UHGV virus genome: UHGV-0374175
Direction: 5' to 3' (one strand)
Source of the DNA: a virus
Length of the DNA: 15,745 bases
Shown: one piece after another, positions 526 to 15,745 of the stretch
How the letters are laid out: each line of letters opens with the position of its first letter
Numbering within the stretch: position 1 is the first letter of the stretch
Position numbers and translations under genes: made by a program
Notes under the pieces: generated by a model
The model's input: only the letters and a program-made list of their open reading frames with translations
What the model was told of the DNA's origin: nothing
The model's database searches: none

Positions 526-1182
526 CTATTTAACATACTTGACTGTTAAACTTATAATTTTACCAATTATTTCAATGTCTTCTATCTTGCATTCGAAGGC
601 TCTGTTTCCACCCTCGACGAAGATTCTTCCACCGGGTAAACGAGTAATGTCACGGATCGTTATTTCGCCATCAATACTTATTACCCATTTACCATCACGT
701 ATATCATCAAATTCTTTATCACAAATAAATTCAGAATTGTTATCTGTGATGACAAAAGGTTTTTTAAACGTAGAGGGTAGAAATCCCTTATCAAAAATAT
801 AAAAACCGTCTTTCTGCAATGCTCCATCAGACAATAAATATTTTTCTACTTCTATAGTATTTGTATTTGCTGATGCTTGCTTTGAACCATGCCCTGTTGT
901 TAGCCAATTAAGCGAGGTGCCCGTTTCAAGGGCGCACTGGATTACCCAATCTGCTGGAAAAATATCACGCATATAGCGCGTTGCCATGGTGCTCTTAGAA
1001 ACACCTAAATGATCACAGAGAGCCTGACGAGTACCGAACCCATATGCTTCAACTAAACGTTCTATGGCTTTCTTACCGCCGCTATTGAAATCCACAAGTC
1101 CTCCAAAGAAATCCAAAATTCGTTGACAGATTCCAAAAGCGATCTTAAAGTTGAACCAGAAGTGTTCTTTTGGAGCCTTCAC
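526..1182 (-). CDS. cI: Phage 186-type CI immunity repressor
   Basis: The ORF contains ...LVEAYGFGTRQALCDHLGVSKSTMATRYMRD...CALETGTSLNWLTTGHG, which fits my recollection of the N-terminal HTH region of coliphage 186 CI. It is transcribed divergently from the apl/cII early operon. The true start may be the internal GTG at 1095, which is preceded by GGAGGA and would give about 190 aa; the longest ORF starts at ATG 1182. Confidence 0.75.
   Translation of the reverse strand: MKAPKEHFWFNFKIAFGICQRILDFFGGLVDFNSGGKKAIERLVEAYGFGTRQALCDHLGVSKSTMATRYMRDIFPADWVIQCALETGTSLNWLTTGHGSKQASANTNTIEVEKYLLSDGALQKDGFYIFDKGFLPSTFKKPFVITDNNSEFICDKEFDDIRDGKWVISIDGEITIRDITRLPGGRIFVEGGNRAFECKIEDIEIIGKIISLTVKYVK
1123..1151 (+). 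promoter_or_regulatory. Candidate sigma70 early lytic promoter (pR-like)
   Basis: TTGACA at 1123-1128, a 17-nt spacer, then TAAAGT at 1146-1151, upstream of the apl-like gene. It would lie in the intergenic region only if cI starts at the GTG at 1095. Confidence 0.35.
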
Positions 1183-3309: not shown

Positions 3310-3608
3310 CAGGGGCTGTGCGTATCCATCAATTAAAAATTGCACCTAAGTATTTCAACGCTGTGGTTGCAGGTCAAAAGACGGCTGAACTTCGTAAAGA
3401 CGATCGTGGCTATAAAGTTGGTGATGTTCTTTCTCTTTGCGAATGGAAGCATGGCGTATTTACGGGTAGGGAATGGGCCGCGGTTATCTCTCATGTGCTT
3501 CCGGTTAATGACGTCATGGCAGTTTCAGAACAATGGGTGATGCTATCAATTCGCTCATTAACCCCATTAGAAGCTTTAGGATATGTTATTGCAGGAGGTG
3601 CTGTATGA
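3306..3608 (+). CDS. ASCH/PUA-like small protein (DUF3850-like), hypothetical
   Basis: ATG at 3306 overlaps the upstream stop (ATGA) and is preceded by GGAGG. The 100-aa product [33 protein letters not shown]... resembles ASCH-domain proteins often found next to phage methyltransferases. The tracked ORF start at 3246 is probably too far upstream. Confidence 0.6.
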
Positions 3609-4462
3609 GCACCATCCTGAAATGGGCGGGTAATAAAACCACCATTATGTCCGAACTGAAAAAATACCTTCCTGCTGGCACGCGACTGGTTGAACCTTTC
3701 GCGGGTTCTTGTGCTGTGATGATGGAGACGGATTACCCCAGCTATCTGGTTGCGGATATTAATCCTGATTTAATCAACCTCTATAAAAAGGTTGCTGCTG
3801 ATTGTGAGGCGTTTATATCTCGTGCCAGAGCTTTATTTGAGGAAGCAAACAGAGAGGTGGCTTATTACAACATAAGGCAGGAGTTTAATTACTCCACTGA
3901 AATTACTGATTTCATGAAAGCGGTATATTTTCTGTATCTCAATCGTCATGGTTACCGTGGGCTATGTCGCTATAACAAGAGCGGGTATTTCAACATTCCC
4001 TACGGTAATTATAAAAATCCGTATTTCCCTGAAAAAGAAATTCGCGCATTTGCAGAGAAAGCCCAGCGGGCAACGTTTATCTGCGCCAGCTTTGATGAAA
4101 CGCTGGCGATGTTGAAGGCGGGGGATGTGGTGTATTGCGATCCGCCTTATGACGGTACGTTTTCCGGCTATCACACTGATGGCTTCACTGAAGATGACCA
4201 GTATCACCTGGCATCCGTTCTTGAACATCGATCATCTGAAGGTCATCCGGTCATTGTTTCTAACAGTGACACATCCCTGATCCGTTCGCTGTATCGCAAT
4301 TTTACTCACCACTACATCAAGGCAAAACGCAGCATCGGCGTGGCAGCTGGTGAGAGTAAATCTGCAACAGAAATCATCGCTGTTTCCGGGCCGCGCTGCT
4401 GGGTAGGATTTGATCCTTCGCGTGGCGTGGATTGTTCCGTCGTGTACGGAGTGCGTGCATGA
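3605..4462 (+). CDS. dam: DNA adenine methyltransferase (Dam-like, GATC N6-adenine MTase)
   Basis: LKWAGNK and EPFAGSCAV (AdoMet binding), [16 protein letters not shown], and the catalytic DPPY in [10 protein letters not shown]; strongly collinear with E. coli Dam as I recall it. ATG at 3605 overlaps the upstream stop. Confidence 0.9.
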
Positions 4463-6873
4463 GCCATGCTGATATGAACAACTGCAGCGGCTTTAACGAG
4501 GTCGCCGCAGCATTCTCATGGAACAGCCCGAAAAAGGCCATTAACCCTTATCTGGACCCGGCGGAAGTTGCGCCGGTTTCTGCGCTTTCAAACCTGATCA
4601 CTCTGTACGCTGCCGATAACGAGCAGGAACAACTGCGCCGCGAGGCACTGAGTGATCAGGTCTGGGAGCGTTATTTCTTTAATGAATCCCGTGATCCTGT
4701 CCAACGCGAAATGGAGCAGGATAAGCTAATTAGCCGGGCAAAGCTGGCGCATGAGCAGCAGCGTTTTAATCCAGACATGGCCATTCTGGCGGACGTCAAC
4801 GCCCAGCCTTCCCATATCAGCAAGCCGCTGATGCAACGTATTAAATACTTCAGCAGCCTGGGCAGGCCAAAGGCTTATTCCCGCTATTTGCGTGAGACGA
4901 TTAAGCCATGCTTGGAACGACTGGAGCATGTACGCGACAGTCAGCTATCCACTTCTTTTCGCTTTATGGCAAGCCATGAAGGGCTGGACGGCCTGCTGAT
5001 CCTGCCTGAAATGAGTCAGGATCAGGTGAAACGCCTGTCCACCTTGGTAGCTGCGCATATGAGCATGTGCCTTGATACAGCTTGTGGCGATTTGTATGCC
5101 ACCGATGATGTTACGCCAGAAGAAATCCGCAAGACATGGGAAAAGGTGGCAGCGGAAACCCTGCGTCTGGATGTTATCCCGCCTGCGTTTGAGCAACTCT
5201 GTCGGAAAAGAAACCGCCGTAAACCCGTGCCTTATGAACTCATTCCGGGTTCGCTGGCGCGTATGTTATGCGCCGACTGGTGGTATCGGAAATTATGGAA
5301 GATGCGTTGCGAATGGCGGGAAGAGCAGTTGCGTGCTGTTTGCCTGGTCAGCAAAAAAGCATCTCCCTATGTCAGCTATGAAGCTGTGATGCATAAACGT
5401 GAGCAGCGCCGTAAGTCGCTGGAGTTTTTCCGTTCTCATGAACTGGTGAACGAAGACGGCGACACGCTGGATATGGAAGACGTGGTAAACGCCAGCAGCA
5501 GCAACCCTGCGCATCGCCGCAATGAGATGATGGCCTGTGTTAAAGGTCTGGAGCTTATCGCGGAAATGCGTGGTGACTGCGCCGTTTTCTACACCATCAC
5601 CTGTCCGTCACGTTTCCATTCCACGCTAAATAACGGCAGGCCCAACCCGACCTGGACAAATGCGACGGTAAGACAAAGCAGTGATTATCTGGTCGGTATG
5701 TTTGCTGCATTTCGTAAGGCGATGCACAAAGCCGGATTACGCTGGTATGGCGTGCGGGTGGCTGAGCCGCATCATGACGGTACAGTTCACTGGCACCTGT
5801 TGTGTTTTATGCGCAAAAAAGATCGCCGCGCCATTACTGCTTTGTTGCGTAAGTTTGCCATTCGTGAAGACCGCGAGGAGCTGGGTAATAACACGGAACC
5901 ACGCTTTAAGTCTGAGCTGATAAACCCGCGCAAAGGTACGCCAACAAGCTACATCGCGAAATACATCAGTAAGAACATTGACGGGCGTGGTCTGGCTGGC
6001 GAGATCAGCAAGGAAACGGGTAAATCCCTGCGTGATAACGCCGAATACGTTAATGCCTGGGCGTCTCTGCATCGTGTTCAGCAATTCCGCTTCTTTGGCA
6101 TTCCGGGGCGTCAGGCTTACCGTGAACTGCGATTGCTGGCTGGTCAGGCGGCAAGGCAACAGGGTGACAAAAAAGCAGGTGCGCCGGTACTGGATAACCC
6201 GCGTCTTGATGCCATTCTGGCTGCTGCGGATGCTGGTTGTTTTGCCACCTACATCATGAAGCAGGGTGGCGTACTGGTTCCCCGTAAATATCACCTCATC
6301 AGAACCGCTTATGAAATCAACGAAGAGCCGACCGCCTATGGCGATCACGGCATTCGTATTTATGGCATCTGGTCACCCATTGCAGAGGGCAAGATCTGCA
6401 CTCATGCAGTGAAGTGGAAAATGGTTCGTAAAGCCGTTGACGTTCAGGAGGCGGCAGCCGACCAGGGCGCTTGCGCCCCTTGGACTCGTGGCAATAACTG
6501 TCCCCTTGCTGAAAATTTGAACCAACAGGAGAAAGATAAATCAGCTGATGGGGACACCAGAACGGACATTACCCGCATGGATGACAAGGAGTTGCACGAT
6601 TACCTGCACAGTATGAGCAAAAAAGAGCGCCGGGAACTGGCAGCAAGGTTACGCCAGGTGAAGCCGAAAAGGCGTAAAGACTACAAACAGCGAATTACAG
6701 ATCATCAGCATCAGCAGCTCGTCTATGAACTGAAGTCCAGAGGATTTGATGGCAGCGAGAAAGAGGTCGATTTACTCCTTCGCGGTGGCAGTCTTCCGTC
6801 AGGAGCAGGCCTGCGTATCTTCTATCGGAACCAGCGTTTGCAGGAAGATGATAAGTGGCGGAACCTGTATTAA
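4459..6873 (+). CDS. A: Replication initiation endonuclease (P2 gpA / 186 A family, rolling-circle initiator)
   Basis: 804-aa ORF. ATG at 4459 overlaps the Dam stop (ATGA) and follows GGAG. It contains [11 protein letters not shown] (HUH-type metal-binding motif) and YIAKYISKN (catalytic tyrosine region), typical of the P2 A family. Position after the TraR-like ORF matches P2/186. Confidence 0.9.
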
Positions 6874-7225: not shown

Positions 7226-7459
7226 ATGCGCATTGAAATAATGATCGATAAAGAGCAGAAGATTAGCCAGTCTACCCTGGAGGCCCTTGAATCCGAACTT
7301 TACCGCAATCTGCGCCCCCTGTATCCCAAAACGGTAATTCGTATCCGTAAAGGTAGCTCTAACGGTGTGGAACTGACTGGACTGCAACTGGACGAAGAAA
7401 GGAAGCAAGTGATGAAAATTATGCAGAAGGTGTGGGAAGACGACAGCTGGCTGCATTAA
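7226..7459 (+). CDS. DinI-family protein (Tum C-terminal-like / SOS-regulated)
   Basis: MRIEIMIDKEQKISQSTLEALESELYRNLRPLYP...KQVMKIMQKVWEDDSW is collinear with E. coli DinI as I recall it (MRIEVTIAK...ELSRR...ILQETWESADDW). GGGAG RBS. Confidence 0.8.
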   Translation: MRIEIMIDKEQKISQSTLEALESELYRNLRPLYPKTVIRIRKGSSNGVELTGLQLDEERKQVMKIMQKVWEDDSWLH

Positions 7460-7603
7460 GAAACGTTGCTGGCGTCTGAACTTGTTTCTGGCGTCAGCAA
7501 GGTTGAACAACGAGCCCTTGTGAGGCGTTAGCTCTGTAGTGCATGTCTATGCCGCATGAGATCGCATGATCGTTTGAGGATCGTTTTTGCTAAGGCCCGC
7601 CAG

Positions 7604-7628
7604 AACTGGCGGGCTTTTGCGTAGATCA
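7604..7628 (+). terminator. Rho-independent terminator
   Basis: GGCCCGCCAG (7604-7613), 2-nt loop, CTGGCGGGC (7616-7624), followed by TTTT (7625-7628). Confidence 0.7.
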
Positions 7629-7663
7629 TGCAGGTGCATGAAAACCACTACATAAAGCGGGCA

Positions 7664-7682
7664 GGCGTGGCGGGGATACGAG
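7664..7682. other. cos-like motif (possible cohesive-end site of the P2/186 family)
   Basis: GGCGTGGCGGGGA at 7664-7676 matches the first 13 nt of the P2/186 19-nt cohesive end as I recall it (GGCGAGGCGGGGAAAGCAC in P2); the remaining 6 nt diverge. It lies between the replication-side genes and the portal side, where the cos of a P2-family prophage should be. Confidence 0.3.
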
Positions 7683-7690
7683 CGCGCGCC

Positions 7691-7719
7691 TTGCCTTATA
7701 TCTATTTGTTCATTAAAAT
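7691..7719 (+). promoter_or_regulatory. Candidate sigma70 promoter for the retron ncRNA/operon
   Basis: TTGCCT at 7691-7696, 17-nt spacer, TAAAAT at 7714-7719, at the left edge of the AT-rich island and upstream of the palindrome and RT gene. Confidence 0.4.
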
Positions 7720-7725
7720 CATTAT

Positions 7726-7925
7726 GCTCTTTAGTGTAGGAACATTGGTTCCAGCCGGGTGATTAGCCAGGCTTAAATTTATTGTCCGGTTTAGGGTTGC
7801 GAAAGACACAGATTTCTCCTTCGCATCCCTGCCCGGGGCAGATATGCGAAGGAGAAATCTGTGTCTTTCGCTGTCTTTAGTGAAGAGTCAAAGCGCTATG
7901 TAAAGTTGCATAGCGCTTTGGTTTT
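7726..7925 (+). ncRNA. Putative retron msr-msd non-coding RNA (boundaries approximate)
   Basis: Non-coding stretch immediately upstream of a retron-type RT. It contains a 28-bp perfect inverted repeat (the likely msd template stem) and a second 12-bp stem-loop before the RT start. I could not identify a convincing a1/a2 inverted-repeat pair or the branching G by eye, so the ends are not defined. Confidence 0.45.
7799..7871. repeat. 28-bp perfect inverted repeat with 17-nt spacer (probable msd stem-loop)
   Basis: GCGAAAGACACAGATTTCTCCTTCGCAT (7799-7826) is the exact reverse complement of ATGCGAAGGAGAAATCTGTGTCTTTCGC (7844-7871). The spacer itself contains the palindrome CTGCCC-G-GGGCAG. Confidence 0.9.
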
Positions 7926-7937
7926 AAGAGGGGTTAT

Positions 7938-8873
7938 ATGCAACTAACTTCTAAAATTATCAGTAAGTTTAATTATAATAGATTAGCTTTCCAATTACTT
8001 TTAAATGAGGCCCCCAAAAAATATAAAGTTTATTATATTCCTAAACGTGGCGCAGGTTTTCGGGTGATAGCTCAGCCGACAAAGGAACTAAAAAACGTAC
8101 AGAGATTTATAGTATCTTTGCTACAGCCAAAGCTGCCTGTTCATCATAAGGCAATGGCATATGAATATAAAAAAAGTATTAAAGATAATGCATTGTTGCA
8201 TAAAGATAATAATTATATTCTTAAAATGGATTTTCAGAACTTCTTTAACAAAATTAAACCTGATATATTTTTCTCGAAACTTGAGAACACAGGGCTGAAA
8301 TTGGATTCATTTGATGAGAACACCCTACGTAATTTGCTTTTTTGGCGTCCGGGAAAAAAGAGAAGTACAACGTTGATATTAAGTGTAGGGGCGCCAAGCT
8401 CACCATTTATTAGTAATTTTGTTATGTATGACTTTGACAAGAGTCTTGATGATTGGTGCCGTAACAATGGTATCACTTATTCAAGGTATGCAGATGATAT
8501 AACTTTTTCAACTAATATTAAGGATATATTGTGCAGGGTTCCTAAGGTGGTAAAAAAAATGTTGTCGCTCCATGTTCCCGGTCTATCAATCAATGAATCT
8601 AAAACAATTTTTACATCGATGGCTCATAATCGGCACGTGACTGGTGTAACACTTACACCTCAGGGCAATTTATCAATTGGTCGCGATCGTAAAAGGATGC
8701 TGTTTGCAAAGATTCATAAATATTCTTTGGGACTCTTATCTTCCGAAGAAATAAATAAAACCAAAGGGATGATTGCGTTTGCAAATTATTTGGAGGGTGA
8801 TTTTTTATTAAGGTTACAAAAAAAATATGGTTGTGAGTTAATAACTAAGTTCCTGATGGAAGGAAACAAATAA
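7938..8873 (+). CDS. ret: Retron-type reverse transcriptase
   Basis: 311 aa. RT active site YADD (YSRYADDITFS), retron-typical motif NRHVTGVTL (NAxxH / VTG), and RT motifs such as VGAPSSPFISN. GAGGGG RBS. Preceded by structured non-coding DNA. Confidence 0.92.
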   Translation: MQLTSKIISKFNYNRLAFQLLLNEAPKKYKVYYIPKRGAGFRVIAQPTKELKNVQRFIVSLLQPKLPVHHKAMAYEYKKSIKDNALLHKDNNYILKMDFQNFFNKIKPDIFFSKLENTGLKLDSFDENTLRNLLFWRPGKKRSTTLILSVGAPSSPFISNFVMYDFDKSLDDWCRNNGITYSRYADDITFSTNIKDILCRVPKVVKKMLSLHVPGLSINESKTIFTSMAHNRHVTGVTLTPQGNLSIGRDRKRMLFAKIHKYSLGLLSSEEINKTKGMIAFANYLEGDFLLRLQKKYGCELITKFLMEGNK

Positions 8874-10507
8874 TGATAAATAAAATGAATTTAGAGACTT
8901 GCTATGTTGATTTTTTAGAGTTGGAATCACATGTGATAAACGAGGATTATTTGAAGGAGTCTGTTGAGCTTCAAAAGCTAATATCTACTTTAAATGAGAG
9001 TAAGTTTCATTTAAATAAAATAGGTATACATGATTTTAAACGGATAAGAGAACTACAGATTTCCTTAGAAGATGATTTGACTGTTTTTGTCGGGGATAAC
9101 GGATTCGGTAAAAGCACTATTTTGGATGCAATAGCAATTGTTTTGAGTTGGTTGAGATCAAATATTGAAAAGGAGAGTAAGCCTGGTACTTATATTAAAA
9201 GCCATGAAGTTAATAACTCTGTTGATGTTGAGTATGCATCAATTGATGCAAATATAAAACTTAAGGACTTTAATACCAGTATTTTGATTACTAAAGCGAA
9301 AGAGGGGGCATATTATTCTAGAAATAATGAATTGTTGGAGGTAAAAAAACTTGCAAGTATTTATAGACTTGTGAATAAATATGTTGATAATGCAAGCTTG
9401 CCTTTGATGGCATATTATTCTATTGCGCGTTCTTATATAGGCGGTGGGGTTGATAGGAAAAGAAAAAATGCTAAAACTAAAACTGTATGGTCAAAATTCG
9501 ATGTGTATGATGAAATCGAGTTTGACAGAAATGATTTTACCGATTTTTTTCAATGGCTTGTATTTCTTCATAACAGAGCTTCACAAGAGAAATTGAGTGA
9601 GTCACAAACGACAATCAATGCGTTATTTTCAGATATTCAAAGTTTGAAAGCAACATTAACTCAACTATCTGCGATTGATAATATTGATTCAACAGTTATA
9701 AAAGGTTTAGAGCTTTCGCTTAAAGAAAAATTGAACTACATGAAATCTCTGCAATCAGGAGAACATAAGTTTAATAATGCAGTATCACTTTATGATAGTG
9801 TTATAAATACCATTCTAAAGTTCTTGCCTGAATTTCAGTGGATTAAGCTTGTTTATGGTGATGATGATTATAAGATTATCCTTAAAAAAGGAGAGGTTGA
9901 ATTAGATGTTCAACAGTTGTCTCAAGGTGAGAAAACTATATTTACTTTAGTTGGTGATTTGGCTCGACGTTTAATTTTACTTAATCCAAATTTATCTAAT
10001 CCTCTATTGGGATATGGGATTGTTTTAATTGATGAAATTGATTTGCATTTGCATCCGCAATGGCAACAGACAATTATTGAGCGTTTGACATCTACATTCC
10101 CAAATGTTCAATTTGTAGTTACTACCCATAGCCCACAGGTTTTATCCACTGTTAGCTCTCGTTCAGTGCGTATTCTACAGGAAGTGGAAGTAGATGGTGT
10201 TAATGATTTGATAGTGTCTCACCCCGACTATCAAATAAAAGGTGTTAGTAATCAGGATGCACTTTTATATGGAATGAGAACTGATCCTATACCCTCTACT
10301 AAAGAAAATGGTTGGCTTGAAGAATATAAAAAATTGGTTGAGCTTAATCGTTATAGCAGTGACGAGGCTCTTTTGTTAAGAGAAAAAGTTATTAAACATT
10401 TCGGATTAGACCATCCTTTAGTTCAAGAGTGTGATGATCTTATATCTGTTTTGGAGTTCAAAAATAAGATAAATCAGCACTTTTCTGGAAGTAAGGATGT
10501 AAAATGA
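8873..10507 (+). CDS. ABC/SMC-like ATPase (Septu PtuA-like retron effector)
   Basis: 544 aa. Walker A GDNGFGKST, ABC signature-like LSQGEKTIF, Walker B VLIDEIDLHLHP, and a long helical middle region. Its start overlaps the RT stop (TAATG). Confidence 0.85.
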   Translation: MINKMNLETCYVDFLELESHVINEDYLKESVELQKLISTLNESKFHLNKIGIHDFKRIRELQISLEDDLTVFVGDNGFGKSTILDAIAIVLSWLRSNIEKESKPGTYIKSHEVNNSVDVEYASIDANIKLKDFNTSILITKAKEGAYYSRNNELLEVKKLASIYRLVNKYVDNASLPLMAYYSIARSYIGGGVDRKRKNAKTKTVWSKFDVYDEIEFDRNDFTDFFQWLVFLHNRASQEKLSESQTTINALFSDIQSLKATLTQLSAIDNIDSTVIKGLELSLKEKLNYMKSLQSGEHKFNNAVSLYDSVINTILKFLPEFQWIKLVYGDDDYKIILKKGEVELDVQQLSQGEKTIFTLVGDLARRLILLNPNLSNPLLGYGIVLIDEIDLHLHPQWQQTIIERLTSTFPNVQFVVTTHSPQVLSTVSSRSVRILQEVEVDGVNDLIVSHPDYQIKGVSNQDALLYGMRTDPIPSTKENGWLEEYKKLVELNRYSSDEALLLREKVIKHFGLDHPLVQECDDLISVLEFKNKINQHFSGSKDVK

Positions 10508-11187
10508 AATATCTATCTAGGCAAATGCCAGGGCCTTCCGTTCTTAATAAATTTGACTATAGGAGGGATGATTGGAATTCCCTATCATCAAATGATAAAA
10601 AAGAAATATGGGAAGAAATAATAAAAATGCAAGGTAAATTATGTGCTTATTGCGAGAAAAAAATAGAGCATCATAAAAGTGGTGACAAAAATAAAGTTGA
10701 GAGGCATATTGAGCATTTTTACAGGAAAAGTTATTACAAAAATTTAACTTTCGAGTGGTCTAATTTGTTTGGCTCATGTGGTGAGCCGCAAAGGTGTGGG
10801 TTTTATAAGGATAAGCAAAAATATAACGATGATGATTTAATTAAAGCTGATAGACAAAATCCAGATGTTTTTTTCCATTTTTTGGAAAATGGTGATGTTC
10901 ATATTAGAGAAGGCTTGAATGAGAAAGAACACAAAATGGCAGAGGTTACGTTAAGAGTATTTAACTTAAACCCGTCCTCAGGAGGAGTCAAGGCGGAAAG
11001 AAGACGTGCAATAGAATTAAGCATGACATTAATAAAGGAACTGGTCGGATGTGCATCTCAGCTTATTGAATCAGGATGTGAAATTGAAGATGTTAGATCT
11101 ATGGTCTTTGATGAGTTTAAAAAGAATGTAAAAGATAGATGCTTTACCACTGCGATAAAGCATGTTTTTGAGAATAGAATGCCTTAA
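10504..11187 (+). CDS. HNH endonuclease (Septu PtuB-like retron effector)
   Basis: 227 aa with CAYCEKKIEHH...ERHIEHFYRKS...NLFGSCGEPQRCGFY (Cys pairs plus His-rich HNH core). Its start overlaps the ATPase stop (ATGA). Confidence 0.85.
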   Translation: MKYLSRQMPGPSVLNKFDYRRDDWNSLSSNDKKEIWEEIIKMQGKLCAYCEKKIEHHKSGDKNKVERHIEHFYRKSYYKNLTFEWSNLFGSCGEPQRCGFYKDKQKYNDDDLIKADRQNPDVFFHFLENGDVHIREGLNEKEHKMAEVTLRVFNLNPSSGGVKAERRRAIELSMTLIKELVGCASQLIESGCEIEDVRSMVFDEFKKNVKDRCFTTAIKHVFENRMP

Positions 11188-11210
11188 AGGTTAGAGGGAT
11201 GTATATATAA

Positions 11211-12242
11211 TTAATCTATATTATATTCTGAGAAATTGATAATATGCATCCCTATCCACTGATTAAATTCATGGATTTTTTTTTGTAGAGGTACTAATTC
11301 ATTTGTCACAAAAACCTTACTAGCTTTCTCCACATCCCCAAACCCCCCAACATTATTCGGCATAATCCCCATCATTTGCGGCGGCACACGGTGTGCCGCC
11401 ATCATGTCGTCCCGGCTCACGTTCTTGATATTCAGAAATTCATCCTTCGCTGCAACTTCTGACAACGGGATGATCTGAAGCCCGTCCTTTTTGCCGTTAG
11501 GCGAGTACATAAACAAGTTACGGAAGTTGCCCGGTCCTTTGGCGTTTTTCATCGCGTTGCGGAGGTTGTTCACATCCTCCTGGTTCTGCGCGGCGTCAGT
11601 CATATACATGATGAAGCCTGCATGACTGCCGTTAATGTAATACTTGCGGCGGAACAGCGTGGCGGACTCGTTGAGCAGGGCTGACGGAATGGCAGAAAGA
11701 TAACCGGGCAGGCCGTAGATCTCCTGGTTGATGTCCGGTTCCATCAGATGAAAAATGCTGCCTTTCGCGAACTGATACGGCTGGGTTGTCATACCGTATT
11801 GCACAAACCAGTAGGTATCCAGGTCTAACCCGCGTCGGGTGTATTTTGCCAGCGCAGGCTCAAGGGCGATAACTTCACCGAATCGGTTCGTGCGTTTCTC
11901 CAGGTAGGCGTTACCAAATACCAGATAGTCCAGCACAAAACGCGAAAAAGCCTGCTGGCTGAGAAGCGGGTGAGGGATGTAGGTGCTGGTCAGAATGTTG
12001 CATTTCACTGCAATTGGTGAACTGTGATGCACGGCAGCGCGGAAGGTGCGCGCCAGTCCGTCAAAGCTGACGGGAGGCTCATACCAGCGATCTGTCTGTA
12101 CGCATTCCACATAGTCCAGCAGTTCGCGGCGGTCAAGTACTGGAATGGGATCACCGAAGCTGAATGCTTCGGCTGAAGCTTGGCTTTTATGCTGGATCTG
12201 GTTCGTCGCCGCAGCGCGTTTTTTTTTACTCTTTCCCATCAA
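11211..12242 (-). CDS. Q: Portal (capsid portal vertex) protein, P2 gpQ family
   Basis: 343-aa ORF matching my recollection of P2 Q in length and arrangement. It is convergent with the cargo island, and its start overlaps the stop of the upstream terminase gene (ATGA), as in the P2 P-Q operon. Confidence 0.85.
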   Translation of the reverse strand: MMGKSKKKRAAATNQIQHKSQASAEAFSFGDPIPVLDRRELLDYVECVQTDRWYEPPVSFDGLARTFRAAVHHSSPIAVKCNILTSTYIPHPLLSQQAFSRFVLDYLVFGNAYLEKRTNRFGEVIALEPALAKYTRRGLDLDTYWFVQYGMTTQPYQFAKGSIFHLMEPDINQEIYGLPGYLSAIPSALLNESATLFRRKYYINGSHAGFIMYMTDAAQNQEDVNNLRNAMKNAKGPGNFRNLFMYSPNGKKDGLQIIPLSEVAAKDEFLNIKNVSRDDMMAAHRVPPQMMGIMPNNVGGFGDVEKASKVFVTNELVPLQKKIHEFNQWIGMHIINFSEYNID

Positions 12243-13081
12243 AAAATCTCCACAATATTGCTGGTATTGGCGGACTCGCCCTGCAGCGGTTCGTTAAACA
12301 GTGCGTGCATTGTTGCCCAGGCCAGATCGGCATGGCTGGCTTCTTCACTGCGGCTTGCTTCATAGGTCGGGCGGTTGCCGCTGGCGGTGGTTGCGCGACG
12401 GATTGCCATAAATGACTGCGCTATGTCGGTGTGTCCGGCGTCAAACTCCAGACGACGGTGACTGATAATGTCGTAGGCCTTGAGTACCAGGGCGTTTTTA
12501 ACGTTGGGGTTGTAGACAAACTCCCGGACGGCTGGAAAAAACGCTTTCACGTTTTCATAAACCCCGTGACCGACACCCGTCGAGTCGATGCCGATATAGG
12601 TCACGTTGTACTGTTCGGTCAGTTTTTTGATGGCGTCAGCCTGGGCGCGGAAGTCCATCCCGCGCCACTGGTGACGCTCAAGAATGCGGAACTTACCGCC
12701 CGGCACGGCTGGCGGTGCCACCACCACGCATCCGGCGCTGTCGCCGTTTTGCGTACCTTTTGCCGGGTCATAACCGATCCACACCTCGCGCCAGCCAAAC
12801 GGGCGCAGGGCCAGTGCATGAAAGTCGGTCCAGACTTCCCAGCTGTCCACCATGCACGCCTGCAGCTCGCTGAGCGGGAACACGGACGCGAGATCGTCCA
12901 CGAACTCGCACATCAGCAGGTTCTGGTATTCGTCCGGGCTGTACTCCATGCGCAACTGGTCAAGGTCGAACAGGTTACAGCCGCCGCGCACCGCATCTTC
13001 CACGGTGACTATCTGGCGGTATTGCCCGTCTGCGCACAGCAGGCCGGGGGCCAGATTGCTATGGGACAGGTCGATGTCCAC
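12239..13081 (-). pseudogene. P: Terminase large (ATPase) subunit, P2 gpP family: C-terminal fragment only
   Basis: The 280-aa ORF (reported start is a GTG) is directly upstream of and coupled to Q. The frame is open upstream to a stop at 13172-13174 with no ATG/GTG/TTG start in between, so the N-terminal ATPase half is absent. The upstream side abuts a baseplate-J fragment on the other strand. Confidence 0.75.
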
Positions 13082-13120
13082 CTTGTCGGCTTTGTTGCGT
13101 CCACGGTTGAACAGCGCACC

Positions 13121-13711
13121 GGACCAGAACGGATACCGCCCGTTGCGGCTGTGATGGAAAGTGATGAAGCGTTACGCCTGCGTGTGCCTGCAGCCTTTGA
13201 AGGGCTTTCTGTTGCTGGGCCAACTGCCGCTTATGAGTTTCATGCACGAAGCGCCGACGGTCGGGTGGCGGATGCCAGTGCAACCAGTCCGGCACCTGCA
13301 GAGGTGGTGCTTACGGTCCTAAGCCGTGAAGGCGACGGAACAGCAGAAAAAGACCTGCTGGATGTGGTGGAGAAAGCCCTGAACAGTGAGAACGTCCGCC
13401 CGGTGGCTGACCGTCTGACGGTTCGCAGCGCGGAAATCATCCCGTACCGCGTGGAAGCCACCATTTTTCTCTATCCGGGGCCGGAAGCAGAGCCGGTAAT
13501 GGCAGCGGCAAAAGCCAGCCTGCAGAGGTACATCGCCAGTCAGACGCGGCTTGGTCGGGATATTCGCCGTAGCGCCATTTTTGCCGCGCTGCATGTTGAG
13601 GGTGTTCAGCGTGTGGAACTGGCTTCCCCGCTGGCGGATGTGGTCATGAACAAAACGCAGGCGGCATCATGTACGCAGTGGAGCGTGACCAACGGGGGTA
13701 CGGATGAATAG
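13121..13711 (+). pseudogene. J: Baseplate assembly protein J (P2 gpJ family): C-terminal fragment
   Basis: ...IPPVAAVMESDEALRLRVPAAFEGLSVAGPTAAYEFHARSADGRVAD...GRDIRRSAIFAALHVEGVQRVELASPLADVV... matches the C-terminal two-thirds of P2 J as I recall it. The N-terminal part is missing. The 5' portion of the tracked ORF (12431-13120) is antisense to the terminase fragment and is not J. Confidence 0.75.
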
Positions 13712-14309
13712 TCTGCTGCCACCGGGTTCAACGCCACTGGAGCGCCGACTGGCGCAAACCTGCAGCGGGATTTCTGATCTGCAGGTGCCGCTGCGTGACT
13801 TGTGGAATCCGGCAACCTGTCCGGTCAGTTTCCTGCCTTATCTCGCCTGGGCGTTCTCTGTGGATCGCTGGGACGAGGGCTGGACAGAAAGCGTCAAACG
13901 TCAGGTGGTGAAGGATGCTTTTTATATTCATCAGCATAAAGGAACCACCAGTGCCGTGCGGCGGGTGGTGGAGCCGTTCGGCTTTCTGATCCGCATTATT
14001 GAGTGGTGGCAGACCGGAGAGGCACCGGGCACGTTTCGTCTGGATATCGGCGTGCAGGACCAGGGCATCACTGAAGATACCTATCTGGAACTTGAGCGAC
14101 TGATAAGCGATGCCAAACCATGTAGCCGTCACATGATCGGCATGTCCATCAACCTGCAGACCAGCGGCCCGCACTGGGTGGGAGCCGCCAGCTATCTTGG
14201 CGAAGAAATCACGATCTATCCGTATATCAACGAAACAATTATTTCCGGCGGCACCGCGCATGAAGGCGGGGCGGTCCATGTTATTGACACAATGAGAGTG
14301 AATCCATGA
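13704..14309 (+). CDS. I: Tail/baseplate protein I (P2 gpI family)
   Basis: 201-aa ORF immediately after J, with its stop overlapping the start of the H-like gene (ATGA). This is the J-I-H order of P2-family tail operons. Confidence 0.8.
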   Translation: MNSLLPPGSTPLERRLAQTCSGISDLQVPLRDLWNPATCPVSFLPYLAWAFSVDRWDEGWTESVKRQVVKDAFYIHQHKGTTSAVRRVVEPFGFLIRIIEWWQTGEAPGTFRLDIGVQDQGITEDTYLELERLISDAKPCSRHMIGMSINLQTSGPHWVGAASYLGEEITIYPYINETIISGGTAHEGGAVHVIDTMRVNP

Positions 14310-15607
14310 GCACAAAATTTTATACCCTGCTGACGGATATTGGCGCGGCGAAACTTGCCAGCGCCGCCGCGCTCGGTGTGCCGCTAAAAATTACCCATAT
14401 GGCGGTGGGCGATGGCGGCGGAGTATTGCCGACGCCGGACGCAAAGCAGACTGCACTGGTAAATGAGAAACGCCGGGCTGCGCTGAATATGCTCTATATC
14501 GACCCGCAGAACAGCAGCCAGATTATTGCTGAACAGGTGATCCCTGAAAACGAGGGCGGTTGGTGGATACGTGAAGTGGGCCTGTTTGATGAGTCAGGGG
14601 CATTGATTGCCGTGGGGAACTGCCCGGAAAGCTATAAACCGCAACTGGCTGAAGGCAGCGGGCGCACCCAGACCGTGCGCATGGTGCTGATTACCAGCAG
14701 CAAGGAAAATATCACCCTGAAAATCGATCCTGCTGTAGTGCTGGCAACCCGCAAGTATGTGGATGACAAGGTACTGGAGCTGAAGGTGTATGTGGATGAC
14801 CTGATGGCAAAACACCTTGCCGCACAGGACCCACATTCACAGTATGCACAGAAAGAAAGTCCGACGTTTACCGGGAAACCCAAAGCGCCAACGCCAGCAG
14901 CAGGGAATAACACCACGCAGATTGCGACCACCGCGTTTGTTCAGGCGGCACTGATAGCCCTTATTAATGGTGCGCCAGCCACACTGGATACGCTGAAAGA
15001 AATTGCCGCTGCCATTAATAATGACCCGAAATTCAGTACCACCATTAACAATGCGCTGGCACTGAAAGCGCCGTTGTCGAGTCCGGCACTCACCGGAACG
15101 CCAACAGCCCCCACGGCGGCGCAGTCGGTCAACAATACACAGATTGCCACTACGGCTTTTGTGAAATCGGCGATTGCGGCAATGGTGGGTTCTGCACCTG
15201 CGGCACTGGATACACTGAACGAACTGGCGGCGGCGCTGGGGAATGACCCGAACTTTGCCACGACAATGCTTAATGCACTGGCAGGTAAACAACCGCTGGA
15301 CAATACGCTGACTAATTTGAGTGGAAAGGATGTAGCTGGTCTTCTCACATACCTTGGTTTGGGAGAAGGTTCGGCATTACCCGTTGGTGTGCCTGTTCCG
15401 TGGCCTTCAGCCACACCGCCTACTGGCTGGCTGAAATGCAACGGTGCGGCTTTTTCTGCTGAAGAATACCCGGAACTGGCAAAGGTTTATCCGACAAATA
15501 AATTGCCTGATTTACGCGGTGAATTTATTCGTGGCTGGGATGACGGACGTGGAGTGGATGCCGGGCGACAATTATTATCTTCACAGGGGGATGCAATAAG
15601 AAATATT
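14306..15607 (+). pseudogene. H: Tail fibre protein H (P2 gpH family), N-terminal ~434 codons, truncated by IS1
   Basis: N-terminus MSTKFYTLLTDIGAAKLASA... and internal repeats (NNTQIATTAFV... twice) are typical of P2-type tail fibres. The reading frame runs into IS1 sequence from 15608, so the C-terminal receptor-binding part is missing from this locus. Confidence 0.8.
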
Positions 15608-15745
15608 GGTAATGACTCCAACTTATTGATAGTGTTTTATGTTCAGATAATGCCCGATGACTTTGTCATGCAGCTCCACCGATTTTGAGAACGACAGCGA
15701 CTTCCGTCCCAGCCGTGCCAGGTGCTGCCTCAGATTCAGGTTATG
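15608..15745 (-). mobile_element. IS1 insertion sequence, terminal part (continues beyond the window)
   Basis: 15608-15745 is the reverse complement of the IS1 end as I recall it (…CATAACCTGAATCTGAGGCAGCACCTGGCACGGCTGGGACGGAAGTCGCTGTCGTTCTCAAAATCGGTGGAGCTGCATGACAAAGTCATCGGGCATTATCTGAACATAAAACACTATCAATAAGTTGGAGTCATTACC), including the terminal inverted repeat GGTAATGACTCC. Confidence 0.9.
15623..15745 (-). CDS. insB: IS1 transposase InsB, C-terminal part (partial at window edge)
   Basis: The minus-strand frame encodes ...[41 protein letters not shown], with the stop codon complementary to 15623-15625. Confidence 0.8.

Follow-up and report, generated by a model that had tools for sequence, protein, structure and literature searches.

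The window analyzed here, a 15,745-nt stretch of the virus genome UHGV-0374175, carries a retron between positions 7691 and 11187, from the first base of the -35 hexamer of a sigma-70-like promoter to the stop codon of an HNH nuclease gene. Three open reading frames (ORFs) follow one another on the plus strand. The first (7938-8873) encodes a 311-aa reverse transcriptase (RT) with a YADD motif at residues 184-187 and an NRHVTG motif starting at residue 231 (VTG, 234-236). The second (8873-10507) encodes a 544-aa PtuA-like SMC/ABC ATPase with a Walker A motif GDNGFGKST at residues 74-82, LSQGEK at 349 and LIDEID at 385, the Walker B aspartate being D387. The third (10504-11187) encodes a 227-aa PtuB-like HNH nuclease with HIEH at residues 68-71, which includes the catalytic H71. 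Stop and start codons overlap between RT and ATPase (TAATG, 8871-8875, a 1-nt overlap) and between ATPase and HNH (ATGA, 10504-10507), and the three genes form a translationally coupled operon. An earlier note on this DNA, made from the sequence without database searches, had described the operon with both overlaps, a palindrome-rich non-coding leader and an AT-rich island. All were recovered: the genes and overlaps lie where it had placed them, each of the motifs YADD, NRHVTG, GDNGFGKST, LSQGEK and LIDEID and the HNH motif falls within the ORFs, inverted repeats and a strong fold occupy 7720-7937, and the GC content is 0.30-0.36 over 8001-11000 against 0.44-0.55 upstream and 0.53-0.60 downstream.

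A consensus scan placed the sigma-70-like promoter at 7691-7719 (plus strand), with a -35 hexamer TTGCCT (7691-7696), a 17-nt spacer and a -10 hexamer TAAAAT (7714-7719). Among ten distinct type I-A loci, the -10 hexamer ends 7 nt before the C of CTCTTTAG in every case, and the spacer is 17 nt long in nine and 16 nt in the tenth (L012). This element is likely to function as a promoter, and its spacing to CTCTTTAG predicts a transcription start at 7726 or 7727. The leader downstream is strongly structured: 7720-7937 folds at -108.6 kcal/mol, compared to -59.3 ± 4.4 kcal/mol for shuffled sequences (z = -11.3; 0/200 shuffles as good), and contains an inverted repeat, I1, whose 36-nt arms (7799-7834 and 7836-7871) are 94% complementary.

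The components of a retron non-coding RNA (ncRNA) could be placed within this leader, all on the plus strand. The msr (7726-7790) comprises the a2 repeat (7726-7733), a branching G at 7734 and two stem-loops, SL-1 (7739-7752) and SL-2 (7753-7773). It is followed by the msd template (about 7791-7880), built on a long stem (7793-7834 paired with 7836-7877) that includes I1, and by the a1 repeat (7881-7889), which pairs with a2 and corresponds to SL-3 in the structural study of the retron of E. coli strain FORC_082 (George et al., Nat Commun 2025; PMC12475279). Counted from 7727, position 7733 is A7 and G7734, directly 3' of a2, is G8; if the RNA starts at 7727, G7734 would thus be the priming guanosine G8 of that study (PMC12475279). 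Copying from 7880 back to about 7791 would yield about 90 nt, in agreement with the approximately 90-nt multicopy single-stranded DNA (msDNA) published for the FORC82 retron (PMC12475279). The earlier note had left the exact ncRNA open; msr, msd and a1/a2 now have their places, and the exact ends of the RNA and of the msDNA, including the 3' end, are predictions.

We then looked for conservation of this structure in an alignment of the window with eight relatives found in IMG/VR, seven of which are divergent (RTs 48-56% identical), which gave nine sequences in all. RNAalifold returned a consensus structure of 47 pairs, in which a2 (7726-7733) pairs with a1 (7881-7889), SL-1 is formed by 7739-7743 and 7748-7752, SL-2 by 7753-7760 and 7766-7773, and the msd stem by 7793-7821 and 7849-7877, the latter reaching 7834/7836 in the window itself. 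Overall, 97.8% of consensus cells are paired, compared to 36-51% in slid-partner controls, and 17 of the 47 pairs show compensatory changes, values that none of 500 shuffles reached. Most of this signal comes from the msd stem, with compensatory changes in 15 of its 27 pairs; SL-1 is also supported by covariation, and the eight a1/a2 pairs are 100% paired in the nine sequences, with G-U variants only. One relative, L013 (RT 48% identical), was left out of the alignment; it is without an HNH match, and no recognizable I-A ncRNA was found in the 260 nt upstream of its RT. When the whole window was scanned against Rfam with default gathering thresholds, no match was obtained, and the retron RNA was matched only when E-value thresholds were applied to the short region. 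Under these conditions, the msr family RF00170 aligns over its full length to 7726-7790 (45.9 bits, E = 4e-7) and the STnc400 family RF02058, also over its full length, to 7792-7929 (73 bits, E = 2e-14). Homologous RNAs exceed the Rfam msr gathering score in six of nine relatives.

Profile searches agree on the nature of the three proteins. The RT is best matched in PADLOC by RT_I-A (4.9e-131, full length), followed by RT_II-A (5.2e-111), and reaches 321 bits against the NCBIfam model retron_St85_RT, above its curated cut-off of 235. The ATPase matches PADLOC PtuA (2.3e-193) and ATPase_I-A (1.1e-151), and the HNH protein matches PADLOC PtuB (6e-118) and HNH_I-A (5e-57) as well as NCBIfam PtuB (160 bits, cut-off 150) and TIGR02646 (106 bits, cut-off 52). 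Pfam recognizes RVT_1 in the RT and AAA_15/AAA_21/SMC_N in the ATPase, and a Pfam search of the HNH protein gave no match. Type I-A retrons, among which Ec78 and Ec83 are listed (Mestre et al., 2020, Table 1), combine an RT of clade 1, an ncRNA of family IA1/IIA1, an ATPase of cluster 22_1 and an HNH protein of cluster 39_1 (Mestre et al., 2020). The locus has a retron-clade RT with an IA1/IIA1-type ncRNA directly upstream and a PtuA-like ATPase and a PtuB-like HNH downstream and, judged by its sequence, is a type I-A retron in this sense. The proposal of the earlier note, a type I-A retron with Septu-like PtuA/PtuB effectors of the class for which it named Ec78 and Ec83, therefore stands, and the searches it had suggested against retron RT, PtuA and PtuB profiles matched all three proteins.

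The second-best RT match raises the question of a type II-A1 retron of the St85/Sen2 kind, since types I-A and II-A1 have a common ncRNA-RT module and differ in their effectors (Mestre et al., 2020). The strength of the RT_II-A match is explained by this common module. The NCBI name of the RT, "retron St85 family", points in the same direction, as does the match of the msd to Salmonella STnc400: the St85/Sen2 ncRNA (RF00170 msr plus RF02058 STnc400) belongs to the same IA1/IIA1 family and has the same a2, branching G, SL-1, SL-2, msd stem, a1 and 3' hairpin. However, St85/Sen2 has a type II-A1 effector module, the window RNA lies just under both Rfam gathering thresholds, and the best RT match is RT_I-A. 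The PtuA and PtuB effectors define type I-A, and the genes at 8873-11187 already refute a type II-A1 assignment, to which we attach a negligible probability.

Comparison with solved structures pointed to one particular type I-A retron. The RT is identical over all 311 residues to chain E of PDB 9N69, 9N6B and 9N6C, the cryo-electron microscopy structures of the FORC_082 retron (George et al., Nat Commun 2025; PMC12475279). ATPase residues 2-544 match chain A of 9N69 (1189 bits), which carries an N-terminal extension corresponding to the Strep tag described in the paper, and HNH residues 1-227 match chain F (E = 9e-157). Aligned to the FORC_082 genome, 7500-11300 shows 10 substitutions in 3801 positions (99.7% identity), with none in the promoter and ncRNA region (7690-7937). 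Three of the substitutions change the ATPase (E156G, V346I and V416I, window residue first) and one changes the HNH protein (D61 in the window, G61 in FORC_082). All the residues mutated in the paper are kept (ATPase D387, Q454 and V73; HNH H71 and G44), and both retrons occupy the same hotspot between the same DinI and portal genes. We are thus highly confident that the locus is a type I-A retron of the E. coli FORC82 type, which is an anti-phage system resembling a toxin-antitoxin pair. The identity that the earlier note had left open is that of the FORC82 retron (PDB 9N69, 9N6B, 9N6C), not of Ec78 or Ec83. The system is already known, having been published in 2025 on essentially identical sequence, and is not new. 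Its allele is rare in complete E. coli genomes: the 3.8 kb is carried by 4 of 5426, FORC_082 among them. An identical RT is found in five IMG/VR viral contigs.

Experiments such as the earlier note had outlined have already been published for essentially the same sequence, with cloning of the native upstream DNA, challenge by a phage panel and mutation of YADD, Walker B and HNH (PMC12475279). The cloned operon with its native upstream DNA defended against T3 and T5 and gave no defense against T4 or T7, and the substitutions D387A in the ATPase and H71A in the HNH protein abolished defense. RT-dead constructs were toxic and could be cloned only when the effectors had acquired suppressor mutations, which makes RT and msDNA the antitoxin of the system. 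The RT, ncRNA and msDNA purify together with four ATPases and a single HNH, and the structure was determined for this whole assembly, in which an msDNA "harpoon" is gripped by two SMC-type ATPase homodimers whose C-terminal claw holds the single HNH. The msDNA is a substrate of T3 exonuclease and of the related flap nucleases of T5 and T7, and its degradation leads to growth arrest; all four tRNA-Ser species are depleted, and the cleavage of tRNA-Ser-GCT depends on the HNH (PMC12475279).

Given its near-identity, the window allele should share this mechanism. The promoter at 7691-7719 would drive an ncRNA of about 200 nt, with read-through into the RT-ATPase-HNH operon. The RT would bind the msr stem-loops, prime from the 2'-OH of G7734 and copy the msd from about 7880 back to about 7791 into a hairpin msDNA of about 90 nt. 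This msDNA would scaffold two ATPase homodimers (four ATPases) and one HNH, kept inactive in the complex. Upon infection, a phage flap or 5'-3' exonuclease, such as T3 exonuclease or T5 D15, would degrade the msDNA, and the freed HNH would cleave tRNA-Ser, stalling translation and arresting growth so that the phage could not replicate.

We also considered whether the effectors might be a stand-alone Septu (PtuAB) system that degrades DNA and merely lies beside an unrelated retron or RT. The ATPase and HNH do score slightly better against PADLOC PtuA and PtuB than against ATPase_I-A and HNH_I-A, and Septu (PDB 8EE4, 8EE7) has a homologous ATPase and HNH pair, with an HNH fold reported to be nearly identical. 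However, Septu lacks an RT, ncRNA and msDNA, DNase activity is reported for its HNH and no trigger is known for it, whereas tRNA-Ser cleavage, not DNA degradation, is reported for the FORC82 retron, in which an identical RT and near-identical effectors were solved in one RT-ncRNA-msDNA-ATPase4-HNH complex (PMC12475279). In the window, the effector genes are translationally coupled, with RT and ncRNA directly upstream, and synteny with ncRNA and RT is kept in nine relatives at 48-60% RT identity. An independent Septu system at this locus is accordingly next to impossible.

Type I-A retrons were the subject of at least six structural or mechanistic papers from 2024 to 2026. The two members named in the earlier note differ from the FORC82 type. 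Ec78 (Retron-Eco7; PDB 9L7P, 9NNB, 9VHE and others) shares the ncRNA, RT, PtuA and PtuB architecture, the msDNA-scaffolded complex, the trigger by a phage nuclease and the tRNA-cleaving HNH. Nevertheless, its RT is about 49% identical to that of the window (288 aligned columns), and its ATPase (E = 1e-74) and HNH (E = 1e-31 to 1e-35) are distant. The target also differs, as Ec78 depletes tRNA-Tyr whereas the FORC82 type cleaves tRNA-Ser, and the T5 tRNA-Tyr and ORF75 that evade Ec78 do not evade the FORC82 type. RT identity, effector distance and tRNA target together rule out that the locus is Ec78 itself. Ec83 (Retron-Eco4; PDB 9E8Z) has the same type and gene order but is a more distant homolog (RT E = 5e-79, ATPase E = 1e-65), and the locus is likewise distinct from it.

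An operon that looks intact might still be a silent or inactive relic, either through decay of the prophage or through the four amino acid differences from the FORC82 allele. The prophage is indeed heavily decayed (IS4, IS1 and an 8.1-kb deletion, detailed below), and the alleles differ at ATPase residues 156, 346 and 416 and HNH residue 61. Yet none of the three ORFs is truncated, the active system has exactly the same promoter, ncRNA and RT, and the substitutions are conservative changes located away from the catalytic residues that were mutated. In addition, loss of the RT or msDNA makes the effectors toxic (PMC12475279), so that partial decay would be counter-selected, and an intact operon is therefore most simply a working one. 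We consider a relic very unlikely, and retain the reading of the locus as an active FORC82-type retron. Several points nevertheless weigh against this reading. The ATPase and HNH carry three and one substitutions relative to the characterized allele, all of which fall outside the published active-site residues. At 471 bits, the ATPase narrowly misses the NCBIfam PtuA equivalog cut-off of 500. The covariance-model scan that the earlier note had proposed for the ncRNA region did give full-length msr and STnc400 matches, but both score below gathering (45.9 against 52 and 73 against 80 bits). The mode of HNH release and the escape of T7 are open in the structural paper itself (PMC12475279). Finally, expression from a decayed prophage in this strain is an assumption of our analysis.

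Between a1 and the ribosome-binding site of the RT gene lies a second inverted repeat, I2, with 15-nt arms (7889-7903 and 7906-7920, plus strand) followed by UUUU at 7922-7925. This 3' hairpin is conserved in structure: a hairpin of about 7-15 bp is found at this position in 10/10 distinct loci, with differing sequences (the window and relatives L007-L012, L014, L019 and L020), and it belongs to the consensus structure of RF02058 STnc400. A U-rich tail follows it in only about half of the relatives, and a consensus terminator scan of the window did not call the hairpin a terminator, as it has only four U. With four U here and this uneven distribution of tails, a canonical intrinsic terminator is not established. 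We propose, with somewhat less than even confidence, that the hairpin (7889-7920 and UUUU) is a functional leaky terminator or an element stabilizing the 3' end, which would keep the ncRNA in excess over the RT/PtuA/PtuB mRNA. If so, the host would be shielded by this excess from the effectors, which are toxic when msDNA is lacking. In the searched texts of the FORC82 and Retron-Eco7 structural papers, we came across neither a terminator nor this hairpin.

Part of the hairpin, from the loop into the 3' arm (7904-7912), is also perfectly complementary over 9 nt to the region of the RT start codon (7937-7945), a length matched in 0/500 shuffles. In nine relatives, the longest such complement spans 4-6 nt, which is the chance level. 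We therefore rejected a translational switch as a conserved feature, the complement being lineage-specific or coincidental.

The match to RF02058, a family that Rfam lists as a gammaproteobacterial small RNA (sRNA), bears on STnc400 itself, a Salmonella sRNA recovered from an Hfq library in the STM3844/STM3845 intergenic region of S. Typhimurium, with a faint precursor of about 190 nt and a product of about 55 nt. These sizes are compatible with a discrete msr-msd-hairpin transcript that undergoes processing, and the Salmonella STnc400 locus has the look of a retron ncRNA, not of a regulatory sRNA. If this is true, the Salmonella "sRNA" would correspond to the msd half of such an ncRNA. The 2008 STnc400 paper does not mention a retron, and the connection goes undiscussed in the searched texts of the two structural papers (FORC82 and Retron-Eco7).

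The retron lies in a P2/186-like prophage backbone encoding a CI repressor (526-1182, minus strand), a Dam methylase (3533-4462), the replication protein A (gpA; 4432-6873) and a DinI-like protein (7226-7459). A cohesive-end (cos) sequence, GGCGTGGCGGGGATACGAG, is found at 7664-7682 (plus strand), just upstream of the retron; its first 13 of 19 bases equal the annotated 19-nt cos of phage 186 (GGCGTGGCGGGGAAAGCAT, NC_001317 positions 1-19), and the motif also stands just upstream of the retron in the relatives L008, L011 and L012. On the other side, a portal gene (11211-12242, minus strand; homolog of P2 Q and 186 W, Pfam Phage_portal, annotated as portal in FORC_082) converges with the retron, the HNH and portal stop codons being 23 bp apart. 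The earlier note had placed the island between a cos-like region and portal Q, a known variable region of P2-like phages, and the positions of cos and portal bear this out. The cos-proximal region between gpA and gpQ of P2-like phages is a defense hotspot whose content includes retrons (Rousset et al., 2022; PMC9122126), and the locus corresponds to it: it lies between A and the portal, next to cos, with different cargo in relatives. At this same site, the related E. coli prophages L015 and L016 carry an Ec67-family retron and an AIPR/ComF cassette. Phages P2 and 186 themselves have only about 170-180 bp between cos and portal, with a terminator in this interval.

The cargo forms an AT-rich island of 30-36% GC (about 7690-11255). 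Homology to the other-cargo prophages L015 and L016 stops at 7689, 7 bp past cos, and is restored from 11256 or 11279 onward. Of the E. coli matches to the 7500-11300 query, the majority likewise end at 7690-7695. The last 15 or so codons of the portal gene (11211-11255) fall inside the island, before backbone homology resumes. Thus, the cassette seems to carry a portal 3' end of its own, an indication that cassettes may be exchanged through recombination at cos and inside the portal gene. A minus-strand, terminator-like hairpin with a T-run is also present at 11139-11163, inside the HNH gene and just downstream of the portal stop codon. This hairpin may replace the tQ/tW terminator found between the portal gene and cos in P2 and 186.

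This arrangement is conserved well beyond the FORC82 allele. In the nine divergent relatives (RT 48-60% identical), the order ncRNA-RT-ATPase-HNH is followed by a convergent portal gene, showing that type I-A retrons recur as cos-to-portal cargo in P2-like phages even at this level of RT identity. The informative relatives came from the IMG/VR scan. A tblastn search with the RT against a phage GenBank collection retrieved only distant relatives (at most 48% identity) in Vibrio, Pseudomonas Pf and Klebsiella phages, which were of no help with the ncRNA. Small genomes of Vibrio (11.5 kb) and Pseudomonas Pf filamentous phages encode retron RTs 41-48% identical to that of the window (PQ189325, OR863250, OR801192, OR863249). 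P2-like phages are thus not the only ones to carry retrons.

The prophage around the retron is defective, as the earlier note had stated. On the left, positions 1 to about 140 belong to an IS4 terminus that matches IS4 copies of many E. coli genomes with 100% identity; this terminus takes the place of the integrase found here in the FORC_082 prophage. The right end (15610-15745) is an IS1 terminus (GGTAATGACTCCAACTTATTGATAGTG...), which interrupts a tail-fiber gene (ORF 14306-15688). Between them, a deletion with its junction at 13135/13136 has joined terminase to baseplate J and, by comparison with L015, cost the prophage about 8.1 kb with genes for head, lysis and tail. The C-terminal half of the terminase large subunit (12239-13081, minus strand) abuts the C-terminal part of baseplate J at this junction, and a 426-aa ORF (12431-13711) is a chimera across it. 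From this decay, the earlier note had suggested that the retron might be a retained, domesticated module. The decay is confirmed, but domestication is not needed: the same retron is found in prophages whose terminase and capsid genes are retained, such as those of strains 98208 and 98233, and its presence is therefore not explained by prophage decay.

The FORC_082 prophage has followed another course, having kept its integrase and carrying a TIR-domain gene after a truncated terminase, whereas the window prophage is decayed in a different way. In FORC_082 (L001), this TIR-domain gene (14471-15271) lies between the truncated terminase and baseplate V. It is a second candidate defense gene, absent from the window.

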